Virus record (IMG/VR): IMGVR_UViG_3300045988_155182
DNA from: a virus
Taxonomy: Duplodnaviria > Heunggongvirae > Uroviricota > Caudoviricetes
Reading direction: 5' to 3' (one strand)
DNA length: 64,000 bases
The translations under genes were made by a program, and so were the position numbers. Every line of letters begins with the position of its first letter. The stretch's first letter is position 1. The notes under the pieces were generated by a model, which saw only the letters and a list, made by a program, of their open reading frames with translations, had not been told where the DNA came from and made no database searches. Below, one piece after another: positions 12,255 to 27,406 of this stretch.

Positions 12255-12776
12255 TTATTCTTCGAACAATTTTTCGATAGATTTTGTAGGATAGAACAAA
12301 GAACGCTCGTTGTTACCAACCAGCTGGATAAAGCCTAAACTTTTATAAAACGCCTTGGCTTTGTCATTTAACGCCTCAACGAAAAGTCCATGAATGCCTA
12401 CAGCAAGAGATGCATTGTACACAACGCGCATTGCATGTGTTACAAGCATTGAGCCAAATCCTTGACCTTGAAGGGACTTGTCCAAAGCCAGCCTACCCAA
12501 AGTAACACTTGGAACATTCCGATAAGGAACCTTCTTTTGTTTGCTTCTTGAAGGTAAGGACTCCTTTTCAAAACAACTACCTGACAAAGTGTAATATCCT
12601 AACACTTTTGGCCTTTCTTCTTGAGTGCAAAGCACATAAGCACGAAGAATTTTTCCCTCATGCTGCCTTTTTAAGTGGTTGGCTAAAAAGGCGTTTAGTG
12701 ACTCTTCGCCGCAATCAAAACCGTTTAGATCATAATCTTTCTCTCCAGAGAAAATCTCTATCGTTGTATTGCTCAC
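12255..12776 (-). CDS. GNAT-family acetyltransferase toxin (TacT/AtaT-like)
   Basis: Acetyl-CoA binding motif QGQGFGSMLV; ~170 aa; immediately downstream of a DUF1778-type small ORF with a 7-nt gap. Confidence 0.75.
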   Translation of the reverse strand: MSNTTIEIFSGEKDYDLNGFDCGEESLNAFLANHLKRQHEGKILRAYVLCTQEERPKVLGYYTLSGSCFEKESLPSRSKQKKVPYRNVPSVTLGRLALDKSLQGQGFGSMLVTHAMRVVYNASLAVGIHGLFVEALNDKAKAFYKSLGFIQLVGNNERSLFYPTKSIEKLFEE

Positions 12777-12783
12777 GAGTAAA

Positions 12784-13053
12784 CTACTCCATGCTTTTCA
12801 GACGATCAGCAGCTCGTTTCAGCTTGTCGTTCGGTGCCGGAGGATTGCTTATAGCGTCCATAACCAGATTCCAGGATTCTTCATTCAGAACTAGTCTACG
12901 GTGTTGCTCTATAACTTTCACGGCACGTTCAGATGCACTGCTAACCATAAACTGAGTAATGCTCTGGTTAGACATTGCGGCAGCTTCCTCGATGATGCTT
13001 TTATCGTCATCGGTTAATCTCAAATCGATGCGCTGCTTTTTTAGTGCTGACAT
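12784..13053 (-). CDS. DUF1778-type (RHH) antitoxin partner of the GNAT toxin
   Basis: AGGAGG RBS 5 nt upstream of the ATG at 13053; ~89 aa; operon order antitoxin then toxin. Confidence 0.65.
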   Translation of the reverse strand: MSALKKQRIDLRLTDDDKSIIEEAAAMSNQSITQFMVSSASERAVKVIEQHRRLVLNEESWNLVMDAISNPPAPNDKLKRAADRLKSME

Positions 13054-13371
13054 GTATTCCTCCTGATGGCCGTGATGTAGGAAGGCCATCAATCTCCTCT
13101 GTTCAAACTGAGTTTTCGACTCAAAAATTACTTTAAAAGGCTATAGCCCATTACGTGTGCATTATCAAATTGTGTACGGCATAACACCGTACTTGTAATA
13201 TAGAGGTCATTGTTACTTTTTTCAACAGACAAATACAAGCTATGATTGCCAATTGTTAATCACAACCTACCATTTAACCTTTACACCGCAGCCGTAGGCA
13301 TTTAGGCTATATCACATATAAGAAAACAAGTTGTTTCAGACGATAATTATATACGCAAAGGGAACTCTCCA

Positions 13372-14040
13372 ATGACCAAGATCTTTGTGGTTGGCGGCAC
13401 AAAGGGCGGGCCTGGCAAATCCACCGTTGCCCAGCAAATTGCCGTTTGCCTGAAAGTCAAAAAGAAGAAGAAGGTTTATATTACCGATATAGATATTCAG
13501 CGCACGACAACGAGCTGGTGTGAAGACCGTCGACAGAACGAAGACCTTGAGCTGATTCCTTTTGCATACGTTCAGGATGACATCATTAAGCACCTAAAAT
13601 CGCTTCAGGGTAGAGCTGAGTTTGTAGTGGTAGATGCTGGTGGCTTCGACTCCGAAATTCAGCGACAAGCGATGCTGATGGCCGACGTTATCATTATCCC
13701 GCTTCGTCCTAAGCGTCGTGATTTGAAATCTCTGCGTGATATCGATCCTATTATCGACAATGTTCGTAATGTAAACGATAAAGTGAAGGTCCGCGCGGTC
13801 ATGAACCAGTGTCCGGCTTTGCCATCACAAGTGTCTCGCATTCTGGCGGCTAAAGAGATTGTTGAGACGTTTGGCATCGAGTCTGCGCCAGTCAATCTAT
13901 ATAACCGCAACGTCTATGATGATGCGGAAGAGTCTGGTCGTTCTATCTTTGAAATGACCGGTAGCGAGCGCGACAAAAAGGCGGAAGCCGAGTTTGAAGA
14001 ATTTGTAGATTATCTGTTGAGTCTGGAGGAAAAAGAATAA
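13372..14040 (+). CDS. parA: ParA-family partition ATPase
   Basis: Deviant Walker A GGTKGGPGKST; ~220 aa; followed by a small RHH-like partner. Confidence 0.85.
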   Translation: MTKIFVVGGTKGGPGKSTVAQQIAVCLKVKKKKKVYITDIDIQRTTTSWCEDRRQNEDLELIPFAYVQDDIIKHLKSLQGRAEFVVVDAGGFDSEIQRQAMLMADVIIIPLRPKRRDLKSLRDIDPIIDNVRNVNDKVKVRAVMNQCPALPSQVSRILAAKEIVETFGIESAPVNLYNRNVYDDAEESGRSIFEMTGSERDKKAEAEFEEFVDYLLSLEEKE

Positions 14041-14399
14041 TGTCCATGAAAATGGGTGACCTAGCAAAGCGCAAAGAGCCTGATGCACCGGCTAAGAACA
14101 CAACTCCTTTGCGCCAACCAGTCAGACCACAGGGACGCCCGACTCGTGGCAAAGAGAAAATTAAAAGCCGCACAATGTCACTGGAGGACGAATACTTCGA
14201 ACTGCTGGAGATGATGAAGTTCATCCCTCGCTTCGAGAAGTTCACTCGTTCTGACGTGATTCGTGCTGCTATTTTCCATCTTGCGGAGAAGACACCGCAG
14301 GAAATCGAGGACATCGTGAAACTTAACGAGGCGATCACCGCTGCCGATGTCACGATGCGTACCGATGAAATCAAACGCGAGTTGATGAAGAAAGGTTAA
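14040..14399 (+). CDS. Small basic DNA-binding partition protein (ParG/RHH-like centromere binder)
   Basis: Start overlaps the parA stop; basic unstructured N-terminus then RHH-like SLEDEYFELLEMMKF...VIRAAIFHL. Confidence 0.5.
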   Translation: MSMKMGDLAKRKEPDAPAKNTTPLRQPVRPQGRPTRGKEKIKSRTMSLEDEYFELLEMMKFIPRFEKFTRSDVIRAAIFHLAEKTPQEIEDIVKLNEAITAADVTMRTDEIKRELMKKG

Positions 14400-14443
14400 T
14401 TTTATTGAGGTGCTGCTTGGCACCTCTTTCTATAGGTTCCCTA

Positions 14444-15163
14444 ATGCTCTACAAATATATTGGAAGTGAAGATTCGCAAAAAGTGTTACGTAACCTCAAA
14501 CGGTTTGTAGAGGACGGCACTATCTCTGCTAGCGCACCTTCTTCATTCAACGACCCATCAGAGTTCAAAGTTTCGATAACGATGGGAGGTACAGAAGTGG
14601 AGCGCCGGAAACACTTTGAAGACAATGGATGTAAGGATTTTTCCTTTGAAGACTGGGATGCTGTAGCTCCTGAAGCTGCAAAATCGTTGGCTGTGGATTT
14701 GCGGAAAGAATCATTAGGGGCTTTTGGTGTGGTGTGCTTGTCACCAAACGAAGATAACATCTTGATGTGGTCACATTACTCAGTGTCGCATAAAGGTTTC
14801 TGCATAGGCTTTGATGATGATTTTGTTACCTCTATTGAGGGGTATCACAGCTTTGATAATGTGAAATATATACCTTCTGTTCCCGTGTTCGATGAAGTTA
14901 CAGATGAGTTTAAGGTACTTTTTGATAAGCTCTTTTTCTACAAGCACGAATGCTGGAAATATGAGGAAGAACAAAGGGTTATTACTAAAAAAATAGGCGC
15001 TCAGGCATTTGATAAGAAATATATTAGAGAGATCATTCTTGGACATAACGTTTCTCCTGAAGTAGAAGAATATGCCCGGACACAGCTAGACACGAGCATC
15101 GAGGTTTACAAAATGAGTACACCTGATGATGGTTATCTTCTTGTCAAAGAAAAGCTGAAGTAG
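14444..15163 (+). CDS. DUF2971-like protein of unknown function (candidate defence/accessory gene)
   Basis: N-terminal LYKYIGSED...L...FNDPSEF signature typical of DUF2971-type proteins (from memory). Visibly A+T-rich coding compared with neighbours. Start could be TTG 14405 or ATG 14444. Confidence 0.55.
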   Translation: MLYKYIGSEDSQKVLRNLKRFVEDGTISASAPSSFNDPSEFKVSITMGGTEVERRKHFEDNGCKDFSFEDWDAVAPEAAKSLAVDLRKESLGAFGVVCLSPNEDNILMWSHYSVSHKGFCIGFDDDFVTSIEGYHSFDNVKYIPSVPVFDEVTDEFKVLFDKLFFYKHECWKYEEEQRVITKKIGAQAFDKKYIREIILGHNVSPEVEEYARTQLDTSIEVYKMSTPDDGYLLVKEKLK

Positions 15164-15229
15164 CTCCAGACTTTCCTCAAATGATTATGTTGGGCGCTTT
15201 TCTTATTGAACTGGTTAGTGAGGCTAATA

Positions 15230-16402
15230 ATGGATTTGTTCTCAACCAAAATAGCAAAAAACAAGCTGCACGAATCTTTTAAACAGATTTATCAAGATAA
15301 TACATATGCTCCAGTAAGAGAAGTGATACAGTCGTGGGGGCGTGGGTTACTGGAGCGTAGCGGTGAGCAGACTAAATTCGTTAAAGAGTTTCAGACAACC
15401 TTCAATTCCGCCTTATGGGAATTGTATCTGAACGAAATGTTTATTCGTCTCGATTATTCTGTCGACTACACAAAAGACAGTCCCGATTTCTGTGTTACTA
15501 CACCGTCAGGCTACCAGTTTAACGTCGAAGCTGTGATATCAGATCGGCCACATAATCCACCTGCAGGTGTTCTTTTTAGCGAATCAAAATTCAAACATCA
15601 ATCAACGCTAAAATTAATCGGAAAAATCAAAGACAAACATGATCTTTTTACAGGAGTTAATGGCAAAAAATTCCCGTACTCTACGATGTCTCATGTAGTT
15701 AATAAGCCGTTTGTTCTGGCGCTTGCACCCTTTGACTCCGATTTATCATTGTCTCAAAATAACACAATCATCAATCGAGTGTTGTTTGGCATTGAGGAAC
15801 CTACCACCAGAAATTTGGTGACTGGCAGCCAAACTAAAGTTACCTCAATCAAAAAGAATGAAGACGTTGAAATTCCATTAGGTATATTTACTAACGACTC
15901 ATATAAAGAAATAAGTGCGGTTATTTTCTCCACCACCGGCACTTTTGGAAAAGCCGTGGTTCAAAGCGGTATCGGTAGATATGTAAGGTCAACACGATAT
16001 CGAGCCATTGATGTGAATGATTTTATCGCCAATGAAGGGATGAAAAACGAGGGAAAGCACACACAAAGGATAGGACCTGATCATTTCATCACTACATATC
16101 GGCATTTTTTAAATAACGAAGTCACTGGTGCGGATATTGTAGTTTGTCATTCCACTGCTCATGAAGAGACGCACTTTGACGGCCTTCATATTTACTACAA
16201 TCCTTTTGCGACAGTGCCACTGGACAGAAATATTTTCTTCCCCCCAGAGATAACTCATAATTTTTACGATATGGAAAAAGAACAGTCTGTTCAGAATCAT
16301 CCTGATGGAGCGCTGGTATCTAGACAGGTTTTTGAACCAACTAGAGCACATTTTAGGTATATCATGAAACATTGGTTTCCAGGCTTTCTAAAAGATGTTT
16401 AA
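15230..16402 (+). CDS. Hypothetical 390-aa protein, partner of the DUF2971-like gene
   Basis: GAGG RBS 6 nt upstream of the ATG; co-oriented 66 nt after the DUF2971-like gene; followed by a strong terminator; no motif I can assign. Confidence 0.6.
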   Translation: MDLFSTKIAKNKLHESFKQIYQDNTYAPVREVIQSWGRGLLERSGEQTKFVKEFQTTFNSALWELYLNEMFIRLDYSVDYTKDSPDFCVTTPSGYQFNVEAVISDRPHNPPAGVLFSESKFKHQSTLKLIGKIKDKHDLFTGVNGKKFPYSTMSHVVNKPFVLALAPFDSDLSLSQNNTIINRVLFGIEEPTTRNLVTGSQTKVTSIKKNEDVEIPLGIFTNDSYKEISAVIFSTTGTFGKAVVQSGIGRYVRSTRYRAIDVNDFIANEGMKNEGKHTQRIGPDHFITTYRHFLNNEVTGADIVVCHSTAHEETHFDGLHIYYNPFATVPLDRNIFFPPEITHNFYDMEKEQSVQNHPDGALVSRQVFEPTRAHFRYIMKHWFPGFLKDV

Positions 16403-16426
16403 GCATCCTGCTGGTTGAATTTGGAA

Positions 16427-16488
16427 CCTGCTTCTGTATATAAATACTAAGTTACTTATTATTATTTATACGGAAGCAGGTCTTTTTC
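16427..16488 (+). terminator. Rho-independent terminator closing the two-gene island
   Basis: cctgcttc...gaagcagg stem followed by tcttttt; near-identical hairpin arms recur at 62040-62105. Confidence 0.7.
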
Positions 16489-16590
16489 TATGCCAACTTC
16501 CCAGACACATTCCCTTCCGTTTCCACTTCCAAAAACTGCCACCAGTCGCTATCATCCGCTCATTGCAATAAGTAAGTAACTACCTATCTG

Positions 16591-17340
16591 GTGAGCCACA
16601 TGAGCCAAATCTTTTTTGATACCATTGACAACGACCAGTACGACTTCATGACAGAGTGGAATACCGCTGTTATGGACAAGTGGGTCGCTGAAAACATTGG
16701 TTTGTCGCGCTGCAAAGACGAGGCTGAACTCTTCGAGACGAAGTGGTTTGATTACCGCGATATGCATCCTCTCATGGCCACCTGTCTGTTTACGGAGGCG
16801 TACAAACGTCAGTACTCAAATATCATGCTGACGCACGGTCGCGAACACTTTGAAACAGCTCCGTTCACCACCGGGTTAAAACGCCTGCCTTATCAGGAGT
16901 TGTCGACTGCCAATAAAACGTCGCTATGGAAAGCACGCCAGTTTGCTGATCGCTATTGCTGTTCATACGACTACTTTATCTCCACGGTTCTTTCCGCAGC
17001 TGCACGGCGTCTGTGGGACAAGTTGCCGCGCCCACAGCATTTATGGCAGCCAGAACTGATTGAGATATTCGAAGAGAAATTATCCAGACGCGCAACAACC
17101 CGTCTGGATGACTCTCTGGTTAGCTTTAAGCATATGGGAGACATGCAGTTCAACCCGATTCAGGAAAGCTATTTTGAGTGGATTCTGGAGCGTTTGCGCA
17201 CCATCCCTCGCAGCAAGCGCATACGCGCAATTTTCTCCGCTATCTGGCTAATGGAAATCGTTCCAGAGCGCCTTATTTCCGCCCACTTTCCAGAAGAACT
17301 GGAAGAAGCACGGCGGTTTATTGATCCCCTATCTAATTAA
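16591..17340 (+). CDS. Hypothetical protein
   Basis: 249-aa ORF upstream of the helicase; start codon uncertain (GTG 16591 or ATG 16600). Confidence 0.5.
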   Translation: MSHMSQIFFDTIDNDQYDFMTEWNTAVMDKWVAENIGLSRCKDEAELFETKWFDYRDMHPLMATCLFTEAYKRQYSNIMLTHGREHFETAPFTTGLKRLPYQELSTANKTSLWKARQFADRYCCSYDYFISTVLSAAARRLWDKLPRPQHLWQPELIEIFEEKLSRRATTRLDDSLVSFKHMGDMQFNPIQESYFEWILERLRTIPRSKRIRAIFSAIWLMEIVPERLISAHFPEELEEARRFIDPLSN

Positions 17341-17383
17341 CTAATACTAGAAAACAATTTGTTTAAAAAACAAAGGAAAGCAC

Positions 17384-18724
17384 ATGACCGAACTTTGCCA
17401 TACAGGACGCGGGCTGTCCGAAGAGTTTGATGAAGATTTTCAGAACAGATTGACGGCCTATTTTTGTCGTGATCACGAGTTTCTTACTCGTGCTGGAGAT
17501 CTGGTTGTACCTAGCCAATTTGCCAATGCGGCCAATGCCATATTGGTTAATATGGTTTCGGGCTATTACCGTATGTACAAGAGCGCGCCCTCTTCATCTG
17601 CGATTCTGGATATGCTTAAGCGTGCGAAACGCGATAAGACTATCCGTGAGGAACTATTCGCCGATGTTGTTGCTGCGTTTAAGCGCATCCTTGCAGAAAA
17701 ATTGTCTGATACCTCGTACATGGTTGACCAGGTATCAACCTTCGCAAAAAGCGTAGCGTTTGATGATGCTCTGATTAAGGCTGCTGAACTGAAAGAGAAG
17801 GGCGACTTTCAGGGGGCGATGGCAATCATGGCCAAGGTTCAGCAGATTGGATCGAACGAAGCGACCGGAATCTATGACTACTACACCTCCGCAAGTGAGC
17901 GATTGAAAGCGCGTGAATATGAGGCTTCAGAGGAGTATGTGCCAAACAGCATTACAACTGGACTCCCTCTGCTCGATAGGTTGCTGTACCAAAAAGGCTG
18001 GGCGAAGCGTGAAATGGTGCTCTTCATGGGGTTCGCTAAATCCGGTAAATCGACCGCAATGGGTGAGTTTTCCATAAACGCAACGCTTGCTGGCTACAAT
18101 GTTCTGTATCTCTCGCTGGAGGTTCACACCAACATTTTGTCCGACCGCTTTGATGCAAGATTGTCGGAGACGGAAATGTCCAAGCTGGTGGAACGGCGCG
18201 ATGAAGTTCATCGTAAGTTGGCAGAGTTGGGAGCCACTAAGGGGATTGGTAGTTTGTGGGTTGTTGAGCGTCCGTCAGGAAGTATGTCACCTGCAGATCT
18301 GGACCGTATGCTTAACAGTATGAAAGCCAATGGCATGGTGCCTGACATGGTTGTTGTCGACTACGCAGATTTGATGCGTGCCAGTTATGACCTTCGTGAT
18401 GATCGCGCCAATATTCGTAGTATCTACACCGATTTACGTGCTCTTTATGACAAGCATAACGTTGCTGGGATCACGGCATCGCAGACAAACCGTGAAGGTG
18501 GCGCGTCAGAAGTTGCCACAATGATGCACGCCGCCGATAACATCGAAAAAGTACGTATTGCTGACCTGGTAATAACGATCAACAAAACCGAAGAAGAAGA
18601 AGCGAAAGGAGAGGCTCGTCTCTACTTTGCTGGTTCACGTAACCAGCAGGGTGGGATCAGCATTCGCGTTAAACAAAACCTCGAACAAATGCGTTTCATT
18701 GAGCGAATCTTAGACGTTACCTAA
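17384..18724 (+). CDS. Replicative DNA helicase (DnaB-like RecA-fold domain)
   Basis: Conserved AAAGGAAAGCACATG initiation context; Walker A GFAKSGKST, Walker B VVVDYADLM, ASQTNREG motif. Confidence 0.75.
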   Translation: MTELCHTGRGLSEEFDEDFQNRLTAYFCRDHEFLTRAGDLVVPSQFANAANAILVNMVSGYYRMYKSAPSSSAILDMLKRAKRDKTIREELFADVVAAFKRILAEKLSDTSYMVDQVSTFAKSVAFDDALIKAAELKEKGDFQGAMAIMAKVQQIGSNEATGIYDYYTSASERLKAREYEASEEYVPNSITTGLPLLDRLLYQKGWAKREMVLFMGFAKSGKSTAMGEFSINATLAGYNVLYLSLEVHTNILSDRFDARLSETEMSKLVERRDEVHRKLAELGATKGIGSLWVVERPSGSMSPADLDRMLNSMKANGMVPDMVVVDYADLMRASYDLRDDRANIRSIYTDLRALYDKHNVAGITASQTNREGGASEVATMMHAADNIEKVRIADLVITINKTEEEEAKGEARLYFAGSRNQQGGISIRVKQNLEQMRFIERILDVT

Positions 18725-23344: not shown

Positions 23345-24122
23345 AATTACAATGATAAGTATTTACTTACTTATCTTTTATGTATAAGATGACTTTGTTT
23401 TCGTTGAGACGCGACTGTTTGAACTTAAATACAAGTGCAAACGAAGAAGTCTATCTGGCAGTAGCCTAATAAGCCAAACACCAGCGAGGTCAGTTTCCAG
23501 CCTCGTTACCGAAATGGGATACACTGAGCGAGTGTGATTACAGAACGCAGGAGGGAACATGAATGTTCCCTCCGATGAAGTAACAGAATGGGCGGTTGGT
23601 ATATTTTCAACTCCATATGACTCCCGGATTCTTAGCCACTGACCGCCCATCCTGTTACGTCATTTTGTTCAATTATGTCGTTTATACTGGGTTAAAAAGC
23701 GGCGACGTAGCCCGGCTGGTATGGTTAGCCAGCACACAACGTTGAGGCCATTACATTTTTATCAATTCTAAGGTTCTATTCACAGAGATACCGGCGAGCG
23801 TTGATATGTAACATGTTGGGCAAACATTCAATCGGAGTAGTGGCCTCAACGTTGTGAAGACAGGATTGTTGTGTAGGTTTAACCACTGTTGCCATTGGTG
23901 CCTGTTTTCACAACAAATGATTCCATACATCACATTGTATAAATTACAAAGTAGGTGCTGTCCTCAGAAACATCATCTACTTAAAGAGTTTGCCTTCTAC
24001 TATTGAGCGAAGTCGAAAGCGTCTGGCACTAACGAAAAGTGCAAGTAGCGGTGCGTTTCCTGGCAGAAACTAAACCGTCGCGATTGGCACTGTTGAGTAA
24101 TGAATACAGGCAGTGCTGAATT

Positions 24123-24197
24123 GATGGTGTAGCTCAGCGGTAGAGCAGTTGGCTGTTAACCAACTGGTCGGTGGTTCGAATCCACCCACCATCGCCA
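24123..24197 (+). tRNA. tRNA-Asn (anticodon GTT)
   Basis: Cloverleaf folded by hand: acceptor gatggtg/caccatc, D-arm gctc-agcggtag-gagc, anticodon loop ctGTTaa, T-arm ggtgg-ttcgaat-ccacc, 3' CCA encoded. Confidence 0.85.
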
Positions 24198-24199
24198 AT

Positions 24200-24275
24200 G
24201 CCGGTTTAGCTCAGTTGGTAGAGCGCCTGCCTTGTAAGCAGGATGTCAGCGGTTCGAGTCCGTTAACCGGCACCA
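24200..24275 (+). tRNA. tRNA-Thr (anticodon TGT)
   Basis: Acceptor gccggtt/aaccggc, anticodon stem cctgc/gcagg with loop ctTGTaa, T-loop ttcgagt, CCA encoded; 2 nt after tRNA-Asn. Confidence 0.85.
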
Positions 24276-24499
24276 ATACAACGATAAGATCATTACGGTT
24301 AATCGTCGTTCATGTGCACAATGACTGGTCGAAAGGTAGTGATCTTACCGTTGTGGTGGATTCGCAGACTGATGCGATAGCTTTCTTGGATGTTAGGGAA
24401 ATGCGGCCGCAAATCTTCCCTTTCGCGAGCGGTGATCGTCCGTAGTCCTAATTGGCTGCACCGTATGCCGGAGATTCAGTACCGGCCACCACAACGGCC

Positions 24500-24586
24500 G
24501 GAGAGTAGGGAGCATGGTGCTCAAGCGGTCTTGAAAACCGTCCCATTGCGCAAGCGATGATGGTTCGATTCCATTACTCTCCGCCA
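24500..24586 (+). tRNA. tRNA-Ser (anticodon TGA), class II with long variable arm
   Basis: Acceptor ggagagt/actctcc, anticodon stem gcggt/accgt with loop cttGAaa read as UGA, long variable arm, T-arm gatgg-ttcgatt-ccatt, CCA encoded. Confidence 0.7.
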
Positions 24587-24740
24587 GACACAGCGTTGAG
24601 CGGTTTGGCCTTTTAATCAACTCGATTAAGACTCCGCTAACATAAACCAGACCGCTCAACGCTGTGATAGACAATTACGGCAGACGTTCTTAACCATAGC
24701 TTGCTAACATCCTAGCAACACTTTTTTAAGCGCAAAATCC

Positions 24741-24763
24741 AAAGGGGCTTCGGCCCCTTTTTT
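24741..24763. terminator. Bidirectional rho-independent terminator (UUCG tetraloop)
   Basis: ggggc-ttcg-gcccc followed by tttttt on the plus strand; T-rich on the minus strand as well. Lies between the tRNA cluster and the convergent minus-strand ORF. Confidence 0.8.
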
Positions 24764-24764
24764 G

Positions 24765-25673
24765 TTAATGATTGCCTAGATATGATTTTAGTTCTTCTTT
24801 AATGATTAGTGAGTATTCTAAAATATCACTTAGTAAAAATTTTGCTCTGTTAAAATACCCACCAAAAGAACCTAAAATTTCAGATGGTCTTTCTAAGAGC
24901 ATCACAATATCATCTTCTTGCACTTTAGTAATGTAACTTCTAACAGCTCTTTCTCCAATAACTCTTTTCTTACCGTTTATTTCAGATTCATCTAAAACCT
25001 TATTTATAAATTTTTCTGTATCATTGAATCGTCCACTATTGTGTACTATTGTATGTCTTAGTAGTTCAATTAGCTTGATGTTAAAGCGATAGTTTTTGCC
25101 AATCTTGTTGTTTGTTTCTATCTCTTTGAAGCCAGGTATTTTATTTCTGAAAATTTTAGTTATTTTTTTCGATGGGTTACTTTTTGCTTTTAATAATCTG
25201 TAATAAACTTCCCTTTTCCCAATTTCATCATCTTCAACCTTACCAAAATCACTTGAGGACCATAAATCATTTCGAACACATACAGTATAGACATATATTG
25301 CCTCAATATAGTCTTCCAGTAACTCATAGGCTTCAGTAATAACCCACTGATATTGTTTATTTTTCAAAGTATTACACAATCTTATCTTTTCTTCTAAATC
25401 AATGGCGCTGTTACCTATCTCTAATGTTGAACCTGTATATGGGTTTGAACATAAATGGCGAGCTAACGTTGTGCCACACTTAATCTTAATAGTTTCATTA
25501 ATATTAATAATAGTATCTGGATTCTGTGCATACTCCACTTCTTTAAGAAGACGTTTTATATTTTTCTTTGTTGTATCATTTATCTGATTTAAATAGTCAA
25601 AAAGTAAAGATATTTCTTCTCTAAATTCGTTGTATTTATTTTCAATCAAAGAATCAGACAACTTACCAATCAT
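24765..25673 (-). CDS. A+T-rich hypothetical protein with HEPN-type Rx4H motif (candidate abortive-infection RNase)
   Basis: 302-aa ORF with A+T-rich codon usage unlike its neighbours; motif LLRHTIVHNSG (R-x4-H) in the C-terminal half; isolated between terminator and tRNAs. Confidence 0.5.
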   Translation of the reverse strand: MIGKLSDSLIENKYNEFREEISLLFDYLNQINDTTKKNIKRLLKEVEYAQNPDTIININETIKIKCGTTLARHLCSNPYTGSTLEIGNSAIDLEEKIRLCNTLKNKQYQWVITEAYELLEDYIEAIYVYTVCVRNDLWSSSDFGKVEDDEIGKREVYYRLLKAKSNPSKKITKIFRNKIPGFKEIETNNKIGKNYRFNIKLIELLRHTIVHNSGRFNDTEKFINKVLDESEINGKKRVIGERAVRSYITKVQEDDIVMLLERPSEILGSFGGYFNRAKFLLSDILEYSLIIKEELKSYLGNH

Positions 25674-25846
25674 TAAAACCTCTATAAAATGTACATTTCA
25701 AGGCAATCCTTACTGTAATCTATTGTCGTAATCACTTCAATTGTTTACTAGTCAATCAATAAGTTACTACATACTTATCAAAAAAATCTGTTTGTAGTAT
25801 AGTCTGATATGTTCGAATCAATATTTATAAAGGTATTTGTTAAGTT

Positions 25847-26092
25847 ATGACGATCACTATCTACGGACGAGATAACTGCTCATACTGCAAACGTGCGGTC
25901 GAGCTGGCGAAGCAACTAAAGGGACATGGCTACGGTGATTATGAGTACATCGACATCACCACTGCCGGTATCGACAAGGAAAAACTAAGTGAAATTGTTG
26001 GTAAACCGGTAGAGACTATCCCCCAGGTGCTGATCGATGGCCAGCCGATTGGCGGATACACAGAACTGGCTGCATACGTCAGCACCCTCTGA
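25847..26092 (+). CDS. Glutaredoxin (NrdC/NrdH-like redoxin)
   Basis: Active site CSYC near the N-terminus; TIPQVLIDGQPIGGYTEL motif; 81 aa. Confidence 0.85.
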   Translation: MTITIYGRDNCSYCKRAVELAKQLKGHGYGDYEYIDITTAGIDKEKLSEIVGKPVETIPQVLIDGQPIGGYTELAAYVSTL

Positions 26093-26171
26093 TTTTAACG
26101 GCTCACAGGAGCCGTTTTTATTCCCACCAAACTCACTCCCATTTCCCTTAAAATTCAAAAAACAACGTCAA

Positions 26172-26204
26172 AATGATTCCATACCTACTATGTATGGAAT
26201 CATT
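26172..26204. other. lox/dif-like recombination site candidate: 13-bp perfect inverted repeats around a 7-bp spacer
   Basis: aatgattccatac-ctactat-gtatggaatcatt, about 100 bp upstream of the tyrosine recombinase gene; half-site copies at 22904-22916 and 23916-23928. Confidence 0.5.
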
Positions 26205-26302
26205 GCTGAAAATGAGTTACTTTTACTCTTGATCCTATAAGAATCTATGCCTAATATACTGTTTACTTATACAGTGCATCGGCGTAACTCGGTGATTGTC
26301 AT

Positions 26303-27406
26303 ATGAAAAATAGCTTTGACAGAGCACGCGCTGCGGAGAACACCTCAAAAGAGGCGATAGAGTATCTCGAAAGAGCATCTCAAATGCAGGCCGTTATGAT
26401 CTCCCAGGTCAGCAATGACATGAGATTCTCGGACGCATTCATGTTATTCACTCGCTTATCTCTGCTGATAACCAGACGTCGGCCAGAGATCGCTGTTCAT
26501 TGTATTTTGATACATGTTTTGCCGCACATTGCCGATGTAAAAGTAAGTGACATTAATAGGTTCATGGTGAACCAACTGGTCAACCCACTAATACTGGATG
26601 GCAAAATTGTTATGGGCCGCCGCGTTTTCTCTCTGATGAAGCAGTTCCTTAGCTGGTGCGCCTTCCAGGGGATGATAGACGTGTCACCGTTGAACGATAT
26701 GTCACTTAACAAAGTTGCCGGTGGCGCAAAGCCCACACCTCGCGAGCGGAAGCTGACCGACGCAGAGGTATGGGTGTTCTGGAATATATGGGACTACTTC
26801 AATGTGTGTGCTGGTACAAAATGGGCGGCCAGGCTATGTCTTGTATCCGCAAGACGACCTGACGAAGTACTGCGGGCTAAAAAAAGTGAGTTCAATCTTA
26901 AGCGTGGGGTTTGGAATCAAGGCAAGAGGAACAAATCTGCCCGTGAGCATTCTCTGCCTTTAAGCTCATTAATGCGCACTTGTATTGAAGAGTTGTTCGA
27001 ATATGGTAAAGACAGCCAGTGGCTCGTGCCTTCGAATAAAAAAATCGGGAAAGACCTTCCTATGTCTAAAGTGGCAATAGCCCAGGCATTACGTCGTATT
27101 CTGGAACGACCAGAACTGATGGAGCTTGAGCCATTTACACCCCGAGATTTGCGCCGTACTGCGCGTAGTTACTTCCCAGCATTAGGCATAAGCCAGGAGG
27201 TATCACGTAAAATCATGAACCACAGTCTTGAGGGGATAGATCGGGTCTACGACCGGCACGATTATATGGACGAGATGCGAGACGCCTTAGAAAGTTTCTC
27301 GACGTACATCGCATCAATCGTAGAGCAACCGGATTTAGACGAAATTGACCACAAATTTAAGGGAGATCGTCTATCAACAGAGCTTATTCGTGTAAATTTT
27401 TCATAG
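26303..27406 (+). CDS. Tyrosine recombinase / integrase
   Basis: C-terminal catalytic region with RDLRRTARSY and HSLEGIDRVYDRHDY (H-x-x-R...Y pattern); start codon uncertain. Confidence 0.7.
   Translation: MKNSFDRARAAENTSKEAIEYLERASQMQAVMISQVSNDMRFSDAFMLFTRLSLLITRRRPEIAVHCILIHVLPHIADVKVSDINRFMVNQLVNPLILDGKIVMGRRVFSLMKQFLSWCAFQGMIDVSPLNDMSLNKVAGGAKPTPRERKLTDAEVWVFWNIWDYFNVCAGTKWAARLCLVSARRPDEVLRAKKSEFNLKRGVWNQGKRNKSAREHSLPLSSLMRTCIEELFEYGKDSQWLVPSNKKIGKDLPMSKVAIAQALRRILERPELMELEPFTPRDLRRTARSYFPALGISQEVSRKIMNHSLEGIDRVYDRHDYMDEMRDALESFSTYIASIVEQPDLDEIDHKFKGDRLSTELIRVNFS

Follow-up and report, generated by a model that had tools for sequence, protein, structure and literature searches.

Do the two A+T-rich genes lying between the partition and replication modules of this phage-plasmid encode an undescribed anti-phage system, and do they act as one unit? 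A sequence-only reading of the window (the whole 64,000-nucleotide stretch of viral DNA analysed here) had proposed the former. ORF calling recovered the two co-oriented genes exactly where that reading had placed them, at 14444-15163 (239 aa, hereafter gene A) and 15230-16402 (390 aa, gene B) on the + strand, and RefSeq gives matching coordinates for the identical plasmid pHXH-2, where it labels the genes 'hypothetical' or 'DUF2971'. The interval 13372-18724 is 100% identical to pHXH-2, and the host element is an SSU5-like E. coli phage-plasmid. The features of the locus are as follows.

13372-14040, + strand: ParA-type partition ATPase (Pfam MipZ, 7.3e-14; also AAA_31 and CbiA), the conserved left flank of the slot.
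14040-14399, + strand: 119-aa second gene of the par operon, a possible RHH centromere-binding protein; its stop codon is the left edge of the slot.
14400-16423, no strand: hotspot cargo, spanning about 2.0 kb; limits taken from flank alignments against eight relatives.
14407-14426, + strand: small G+C-rich hairpin followed by TTTCT (terminator-like match, 8 pairs), located in the leader of the DUF2971 cassette.
14444-15163, + strand: gene A, a 239-aa DUF2971 protein by profile match (PADLOC PDC-S31); its predicted fold is that of a DarT-like ADP-ribosyltransferase.
15164-15229, + strand: 66-bp spacer; it contains the ribosome-binding site of gene B (GAGG) and a short 5' stretch that moves with that gene.
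15230-16402, + strand: gene B, a 390-aa protein assigned by profile to the PD-T7-5 family; a PD-(D/E)xK-like nuclease core at the N-terminus is followed by a beta-rich C-terminal domain.
16426-16489, + strand: intrinsic terminator of the backbone, made up of a hairpin (16426-16481) and a U-tract; it bounds the slot on the right.
16591-17340, + strand: conserved 249-aa gene, phrog_2500 (PHROG match, 4.6e-113), the right flank before the helicase and primase.

The pair is compositionally distinct from its surroundings, as had been remarked from the letters alone. The G+C content of genes A and B together is 0.398, whereas the window averages 0.459 (sd 0.0275); just 2.9% of equal-sized windows have a value as low, and GC3 is 0.36-0.40 in the two genes versus 0.50-0.57 in those flanking them. 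The original placement of the pair between a ParA/RHH couple and a helicase-primase block stands as regards ParA and the gene order, but needs amending in two respects. The 119-aa gene has no match in a Pfam search, and its RHH-type resemblance is a faint aCcr1 match over residues 54-79 that falls far under the cut-off. Furthermore, the helicase block is not the immediate neighbour of the pair, since the 249-aa phrog_2500 gene, found in every relative inspected, lies in between and is followed by a DnaB-like helicase and then a primase. Partition genes adjoin the pair on one side, and a TacA/GNAT toxin-antitoxin pair is located nearby.

Comparison with related elements identifies the par-to-replication interval as a true cargo hotspot. 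Of 718 related plasmids, only thirteen span 80% or more of 13372-18724, and in alignments of the flanks of eight relatives homology breaks at 14395-14400 and resumes at 16415-16427. One relative, CP113488, is empty, with 31 bp in place of the cargo interval; elsewhere the slot holds DUF2971 alone, PD-T7-5 alone, PD-T4-3, DUF2971 with an unknown gene, or an unknown 352-aa gene. Across SSU5-family elements, phage SSU5 included, the slot is most often filled by DUF2971, which stands without a partner in pB20, Cyrano and SSU5. The DUF2971 alleles in the slot share only 40-52% identity with one another against 96-97% in the flanks, and the ParA gene is 96-98% identical in E. coli relatives bearing different cargo. 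Conversely, the Citrobacter plasmid pCAV1741-110 carries a cassette 99% identical to that of the window between flanks of 80-89% identity, so that genes A and B may travel jointly as one block through recombination in the conserved flanks. The interval is therefore variable and not universally syntenic, and the description of the pair as compact foreign cargo at a module boundary is borne out by its low G+C content, the swappable slot and the conserved flanks. The cargo runs in the direction of par, so its expression probably falls in the plasmid-prophage phase of the element.

The right-hand boundary calls for a different interpretation from the one first given. A strong terminator had been thought to close the island, and the hairpin is indeed real: at 16426-16481 a 15-bp stem with one G-U pair and a long A+T loop precedes CTTTTTCT, and the 93-nt terminator stretch folds with an energy of -29.3 kcal/mol (z = -4.75). 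This hairpin was missed by a consensus terminator scan, owing to the loop-size limit of the scan, and was recovered by direct folding. It belongs to the backbone rather than to the island, however, because the 16426-16489 terminator is kept at 92-96% identity in ~190 related plasmids that lack the island; in the empty relative it follows the 119-aa gene by 31 bp. It also falls within the conserved right flank. We suggest that it is the par operon's own terminator, which would make the slot extend from the end of the second par reading frame (14399) to 16426-16489. At the opposite edge, the small hairpin at 14407-14426 is common to relatives with DUF2971-first cargo and is without counterpart in the empty slot, with homology of the cargo leader extending to 14467 in pB20 and to 14454 in Cronobacter. 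It may serve as a terminator-like element of that leader.

Gene B is, on the strength of its profile match, the known single-gene anti-phage system PD-T7-5. It matches the PADLOC PD-T7-5 model (PDLC04110) with an E-value of 1.8e-139 and 462.6 bits, over a full-length alignment of residues 1-371 to profile positions 1-342 of 346. Residues 1-241 also match positions 108-347 of the PD-T7-1 model (PADLOC, E 4.4e-42), which suggests that an N-terminal nuclease-like module is common to both families. PD-T7-1 nevertheless begins with ~107 additional positions and differs from gene B in its C-terminal part, and the PD-T7-5 score of gene B is far above its PD-T7-1 score. For PD-T7-5, protection against phage T7 was demonstrated with one gene cloned by itself and expressed from its native promoter on a low-copy plasmid in E. 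coli K-12 (Vassallo et al. 2022, Nat Microbiol); the clone contained one CDS of 1173 nt with 143 bp upstream and 119 bp downstream (Vassallo 2022, Table S2). The system has previously been found by DefenseFinder in SSU5 phage-plasmids of E. coli and Shigella. Gene B is equal in length to the prototype RRM82777.1 (390 aa, 1173 nt), which is likewise from E. coli, and the two enterobacterial clusters of gene B relatives would put this prototype at either near 76% or near 100% identity. The 76% homologue sits in an E. coli P4-like element, and the text of the PD-T7-5 paper gives no statement that the prototype lies in an SSU5-type element.

The nuclease-like E...PD...E pattern that the sequence-only reading had put forward as speculative corresponds to the invariant residues E64, P85-D86 and E100. 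These form a PD-(D/E)xK-type core, with E64 in helix 1, P85-D86 before strand 2 and E100 in strand 3, and this region coincides with the published HHpred nuclease matches of PD-T7-5 at residues 58-107. The canonical (D/E)xK lysine is absent from position 102, and the catalytic lysine is probably supplied by helix 118-141 (K128, K132 or K136). Gene B would cut nucleic acid upon sensing infection, perhaps through its C-terminal domain as the sensor; we infer the nuclease activity, its target and its trigger alike. The organisation also fits that of PD-T7-5, a single gene with a short native upstream region: ~40 bp 5' of the gene B ATG are kept in homologues whatever gene stands upstream. Promoter predictions for the 66-bp spacer did not exceed the frequency expected by chance and so are not relied on. 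One difference from the validated clone is that gene B lies directly 3' of a DUF2971 gene, which that clone did not include.

The profile evidence likewise places gene A in the DUF2971 ADP-ribosyltransferase (ART)-like family, already flagged by defence databases. The DUF2971 signature recognised by eye was upheld in Pfam, where PF11185 scores 30.1 bits (cut-off 22), and its LYKY and FNDP motifs are invariant in the family. The PADLOC PDC-S31 model PDLC04990 matches with an E-value of 4.7e-38, as do three more PDC-S31 models; PDC-S31 is a single-gene phage-defence candidate of PADLOC. DUF2971 proteins have been predicted to be ART-like in the literature. The predicted fold of gene A is closest to that of DarT, and the protein retains the motif II tyrosine (S-H-Y112) and the motif III ExE (E174/E176), an ART-like core as described for the DUF2971/PDC-S31 family. 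The likeness to DarT is one of fold, sequence identity being just 8-15% and gene A having large helical inserts. Membership of DarTG was rejected: gene A has no Pfam DarT match at E-values up to 0.1, and neither of its neighbours (the 119-aa par gene and PD-T7-5) is a macrodomain DarG or other antitoxin-like gene. With no antitoxin gene present, gene A would have to be self-restrained until triggered. For both genes, no NCBIfam model matched, and a PDB sequence search with the two family profiles returned no relative with a solved structure.

The closest functional precedent for gene A is Aristaios, a validated, plasmid-borne single-gene DUF2971 abortive-infection system of lactococci, predicted to be ART-like, which blocks phage transcription and protein production (Grafakou et al. 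2024). The two are likened by domain and description, Aristaios (pUCCL641_199) being a 316-aa Lactococcus protein and gene A 239 aa in length; both have the DUF2971 domain, occur as single genes and are borne by mobile elements. On infection, gene A would most likely transfer ADP-ribose from NAD+ to nucleic acid or to a component of the gene-expression machinery, thereby aborting phage development, an activity, target and phenotype that we infer. Anti-phage defence, as originally suggested, is the best functional reading of the pair. The accompanying claim that the pair matches no named system cannot be sustained: PADLOC names both genes, PD-T7-5 was validated in 2022 and reported in SSU5 phage-plasmids, and the family of gene A includes the validated Aristaios. 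The pair is real, imported anti-phage cargo of already-known types and not a new kind of system.

A further candidate identity is suggested by the layout of AbiG, in which an ART-superfamily-like protein of ~240-285 aa is followed by a co-oriented protein of ~390-400 aa, as here. True AbiGi genes stand 5' of PD-T7-5 homologues in Yersinia and Proteus. Gene A itself, however, has no AbiGi (PF10899) match by Pfam or PADLOC, and the YExExR motif alone aligns between the two. A BLASTP comparison of gene A with the Proteus AbiGi was negative, and hhalign probabilities were 0.4-5.6% for DUF2971 versus AbiGi and 0.3% for gene B versus annotated AbiGii. On the hhalign results, gene A as a divergent AbiGi and gene B as a divergent AbiGii were both rejected, and the pair falls outside AbiG.

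We consider it likely that the island comprises two independent single-gene anti-phage cassettes, placed side by side in a recombination-exchanged slot of the SSU5 family, since each gene is widespread without the other. In PLSDB, relatives of gene A occur in 309 plasmids and relatives of gene B in only 14 enterobacterial records, and ~95% of the plasmids with a gene A relative lack gene B. Gene B in turn stands without the partner in Salmonella SSU5-like elements, E. coli P4-like elements, Serratia, Pseudomonas and rhizobia, and in Cronobacter it is intact beside an internally deleted DUF2971 gene. Both genes are therefore found alone, in the same slot and elsewhere, contrary to the idea of an obligate two-gene system. 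A conserved operon was likewise rejected on three counts. With a DUF2971 HMM derived from 42 homologues, no match came up within 4 kb of gene B relatives at 87 non-SSU5 loci; all-against-all clustering of the gene B neighbours at these loci yielded no shared family; and among 48 distinct co-oriented genes upstream of gene B outside SSU5, Pfam identified only two as ART-like, both AbiGi.

Enterobacterial PD-T7-5 homologues are nevertheless found repeatedly 3' of an ART-like gene, either DUF2971 or AbiGi, in several element types. This recurrence exceeds what simple independence would lead one to expect, and a functional link is possible, if unproven. The pair could on this basis be a coupled module, in which one of the ART-like partner and the PD-T7-5 nuclease senses or regulates and the other executes, or in which the two together widen or strengthen protection beyond that of PD-T7-5 alone; taking these variants jointly, we regard such coupling as unlikely. 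The pairings seen span two ART-like families and three element types, with DUF2971 upstream in SSU5 phage-plasmids and AbiGi upstream in Yersinia prophages and a Proteus prophage, and all are co-oriented with short gaps of 41-86 bp. At least three diverged A+B allele pairs occur in SSU5 elements (identity to A/B of 100/100, 73/80 and 54/76%), the 99%-identical block in the 80-89% identical Citrobacter backbone shows A and B moving together, and the AbiG-like layout recalls AbiGi genes, whose downstream partners of ~400 aa are varied. Against this, cloned PD-T7-5 works without any upstream gene, the solitary occurrences of both genes and the survival of gene B after gene A decay in Cronobacter are hard to reconcile with coupling, ART-like genes make up just two of the 48 upstream neighbours, homology between gene B and AbiGii is absent, and clustering of defence genes is expected in any case. 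The broader proposition that an ART-superfamily protein and PD-T7-5 form a recurrent, exchangeable, AbiG-like two-gene defence module in mobile elements of Enterobacterales is doubtful to the same degree.

Two readings that dispense with host protection by one or both genes fare less well. Some phages encode ARTs for host take-over, and gene A could serve the phage-plasmid itself, whether by altering the machinery of the host or of a rival element in the course of lytic growth or by counteracting a host defence; its prevalence in the slot, phage SSU5 included, is compatible with this. We judge it improbable, because gene A is accessory and missing in many close relatives, its highly divergent alleles are swapped between near-identical backbones, and the slot also houses validated defence genes; moreover, co-orientation with par suggests expression in the plasmid state, gene A matches a defence-candidate model, and one DUF2971 family member is a validated defence system. 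Even less credible is a module of the toxin-antitoxin or addiction type, by which the plasmid state would be stabilised and phages affected only incidentally. The adjoining partition genes, the TacA/GNAT pair nearby and the DarT-like fold, a known toxin fold, would all suit such a module, but the persistence of each gene alone is a poor fit to a toxin and its cognate antitoxin, no macrodomain or other antitoxin-like gene neighbours the pair, and the slot can be empty. Two side-by-side defence cassettes remain our preferred explanation.

Naming these genes as PD-T7-5 and DUF2971/PDC-S31 ART-like corrects the record for a cassette present on hundreds of clinical E. coli contigs, while the pairing of ART-like genes with PD-T7-5 and the enterobacterial DUF2971 alleles are still worth examining. 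Should the two-gene module be true after all, the role of the ART-like partner would be to modulate, set off or broaden the nuclease, or to stand guard against its phage inhibitors, and the 'single-gene' PD-T7-5 would be the minimal form of a larger system. More generally, the SSU5-family par-to-replication slot is a natural test bed in which defence cargo is exchanged by recombination, and it could serve both in the search for new defence genes and in studies of how phage-plasmids arm the bacteria that carry them.

Genes A and B are each members of a described defence family, carried as cargo in a hotspot of an SSU5-family phage-plasmid. A sequence-only reading of the window had proposed an undescribed two-gene defence or abortive-infection island. 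Defence was right in kind, but the undescribed two-gene system is unsupported, as gene B is a full-length match to PADLOC's PD-T7-5 model (E 1.8e-139) and gene A matches the PADLOC defence candidate PDC-S31 (4.7e-38). Both reading frames lie at exactly the positions first proposed, in the order ParA, 119-aa gene, gene A, gene B, conserved 249-aa gene, helicase and primase:

14444-15163 (+), gene A, DUF2971 protein, 239 aa
15230-16402 (+), gene B, PD-T7-5 family protein, 390 aa
16426-16489, strong hairpin with U-tract, -29.3 kcal/mol, z = -4.75

Positions 13372-18724 are 100% identical to E. coli pHXH-2 (NZ_MH257954.1, 111.9 kb), and the flanks of this stretch are matched by 717 further plasmids and 11 phage records, among them SSU5, pHCM2 and phage Cyrano. 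The island is indeed A+T-rich: GC averages 0.459 over the window and drops to 0.398 across the two genes, a value equally low in only 2.9% of equal-sized windows, and GC3 is 0.36-0.40 compared with 0.50-0.57 in the flanks. Just 5' of parA, 12255-13092 (- strand) encodes a TacA antitoxin (PF08681, 8.6e-26) and a GNAT TacT-like toxin; this position is variable in sister elements, some having uncharacterised 139-aa and 257-aa genes and others a 183-aa opposite-strand gene.

The interval between the 119-aa second par gene (stop at 14399) and the hairpin is a real hotspot, empty or differently filled in related elements, as the comparison suggested by the sequence-only reading revealed.

Content of the par-to-replication slot in related elements (L handles denote compared loci, in local coordinates)
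CP113488: none
pB20 and phage Cyrano: DUF2971 alone
SSU5 (L006 1227-2271): 214-aa and 136-aa genes without database match, plus DUF2971
pHCM2 (L005 2099-3154, -): DUF2971 plus 351-aa opposite-strand gene
ETEC plasmid and K. pneumoniae plasmid (L007 1288-2346 and L008 1289-2347, both -): 352-aa gene alone
pRM9975-1: PD-T4-3 homologue (E 1.3e-23)
Further relative: IS3 element
Salmonella: PD-T7-5 alone

The 351/352-aa opposite-strand gene has no database match. When the flanks are aligned with those of eight relatives, the match ends at 14395-14400 and picks up again at 16415-16427, and in the empty slot of CP113488 the 119-aa gene and the hairpin are only 31 bp apart; the cargo is therefore inserted downstream of the last par gene and upstream of the terminator that belongs to the par operon. 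The terminator at 16426-16489 is backbone. It had been taken for the island's own closing element, but a 74-bp stretch containing it is the sole match in ~190 plasmids without the island, and CP113488 retains it. DUF2971 alleles within the slot share just 40-52% identity, against 96-97% for their backbones. In Citrobacter pCAV1741-110, the two-gene block shares 99% identity with the window and its flanks 80-89%, which shows that the block was recently transferred by recombination.

PD-T7-5 was discovered in E. coli by functional selection and labelled 'Nuclease' (Vassallo 2022). The clone comprised a single 1173-nt CDS flanked by 143 bp of upstream and 119 bp of downstream sequence, and validation used the native promoter on a low-copy plasmid (Vassallo 2022); the literature credits this prototype with anti-T7 activity. 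Its presence in E. coli and Shigella SSU5 phage-plasmids was already described in a 2025 preprint. Published HHpred matches to Hjc, FokI_C, PDDEXK_5 and RmuC cover residues 58-107. The nuclease-like E...PD...E pattern noticed at the outset falls within this region, with E64, P85-D86 and E100 invariant in an alignment of 32 homologues, and in the AlphaFold model (pLDDT 87.9) they lie on a core of helix-strand-strand-strand-helix order. Since Foldseek and PDB sequence searches returned no match, support for the predicted nuclease-type fold is moderate rather than strong. In PADLOC, residues 1-241 (15230-15952) also match positions 108-347 of the PD-T7-1 model (E 4.4e-42). PD-T7-5 and PD-T7-1 thus have a homologous N-terminal module of ~240 residues in common, which makes these two named systems related. 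One 76% identical homologue (L112, NZ_CP141089.1 3352879-3364030) has no annotation beneath it; its record is labelled 'plasmid' in PLSDB yet is chromosome-sized (4.94 Mb).

The early recognition of DUF2971 in gene A was borne out by Pfam (30.1 bits, cut-off 22). In the family alignment S-H-Y112 and Y173-E174-x-E176-x-R178 are invariant, which fits the published prediction of an H-Y-E-type ADP-ribosyltransferase (ART) akin to DarT and AbiGi. One DUF2971 protein has reported anti-phage activity; the lactococcal single-gene system Aristaios, which shares DUF2971 with gene A, blocks phage transcription and protein production.

Weighing the evidence for independence against the recurrence of ART-like upstream genes, we consider the pair probably two independent cassettes. 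The validated PD-T7-5 clone leaves out any upstream gene, and each gene can persist without the other. Gene B is solitary in Salmonella SSU5-like elements, an E. coli P4-like element and other loci; in Cronobacter sakazakii pCS1 (L010 3310-3514) the DUF2971 gene is internally deleted, reduced to the start codon region and last ~30 codons with an internal stop, while the PD-T7-5 homologue downstream is intact. In PLSDB, 309 plasmids carry a relative of gene A and only 14 enterobacterial records a relative of gene B. None of 87 non-SSU5 gene B loci has a DUF2971-like ORF within 4 kb, and they share no conserved neighbour family; of 48 distinct co-oriented upstream neighbours, just 2 are ART-like.

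A coupled module, which we regard as unlikely, would nonetheless accord with the co-oriented ART-like gene found repeatedly upstream of close gene B homologues (73-80% identity). This gene is DUF2971 in at least three allele pairs from SSU5 elements, and AbiGi (PF10899) lies immediately 5' of co-oriented, 76-77% identical homologues in Proteus terrae and Yersinia enterocolitica prophages (L022 5187-7176; L109-L111 4249-6182), with gaps of 86 and 66 bp; the window gap is also 66 bp. The layout recalls AbiG, but gene B has no homology to AbiGii, and the ExE motif is the only part of gene A that aligns with AbiGi. AbiGi-family genes take varied downstream partners of ~400 aa (L115 2824-4883; L116 2342-4406; L117 2438-3259), including canonical AbiGii in Enterococcus and a 403-aa protein without PADLOC match in an E. 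coli SSU5-like plasmid; a solitary AbiGi adjoins Avs4.

A better candidate for something undescribed is 23900-26800, where the window is at its most A+T-rich (GC as low as 0.356) and which looks like a second cargo hotspot. Here a 302-aa ORF (24765-25673, -) with no Pfam, PADLOC or NCBIfam match adjoins a tyrosine integrase (26303-27406, +). Sister plasmid pR7-S2K78-1 has AbiGi and an uncharacterised 403-aa gene in the same place (window 24761-25847).

For the two independent cassettes, we envisage that gene B may act as a nuclease through E64, D86, E100 and a helix-borne lysine, with a putative sensing role for its C-terminal domain, and that gene A may bring about abortive infection by NAD+-dependent ADP-ribosylation. 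Cargo in this slot would be expressed in the plasmid-prophage state.
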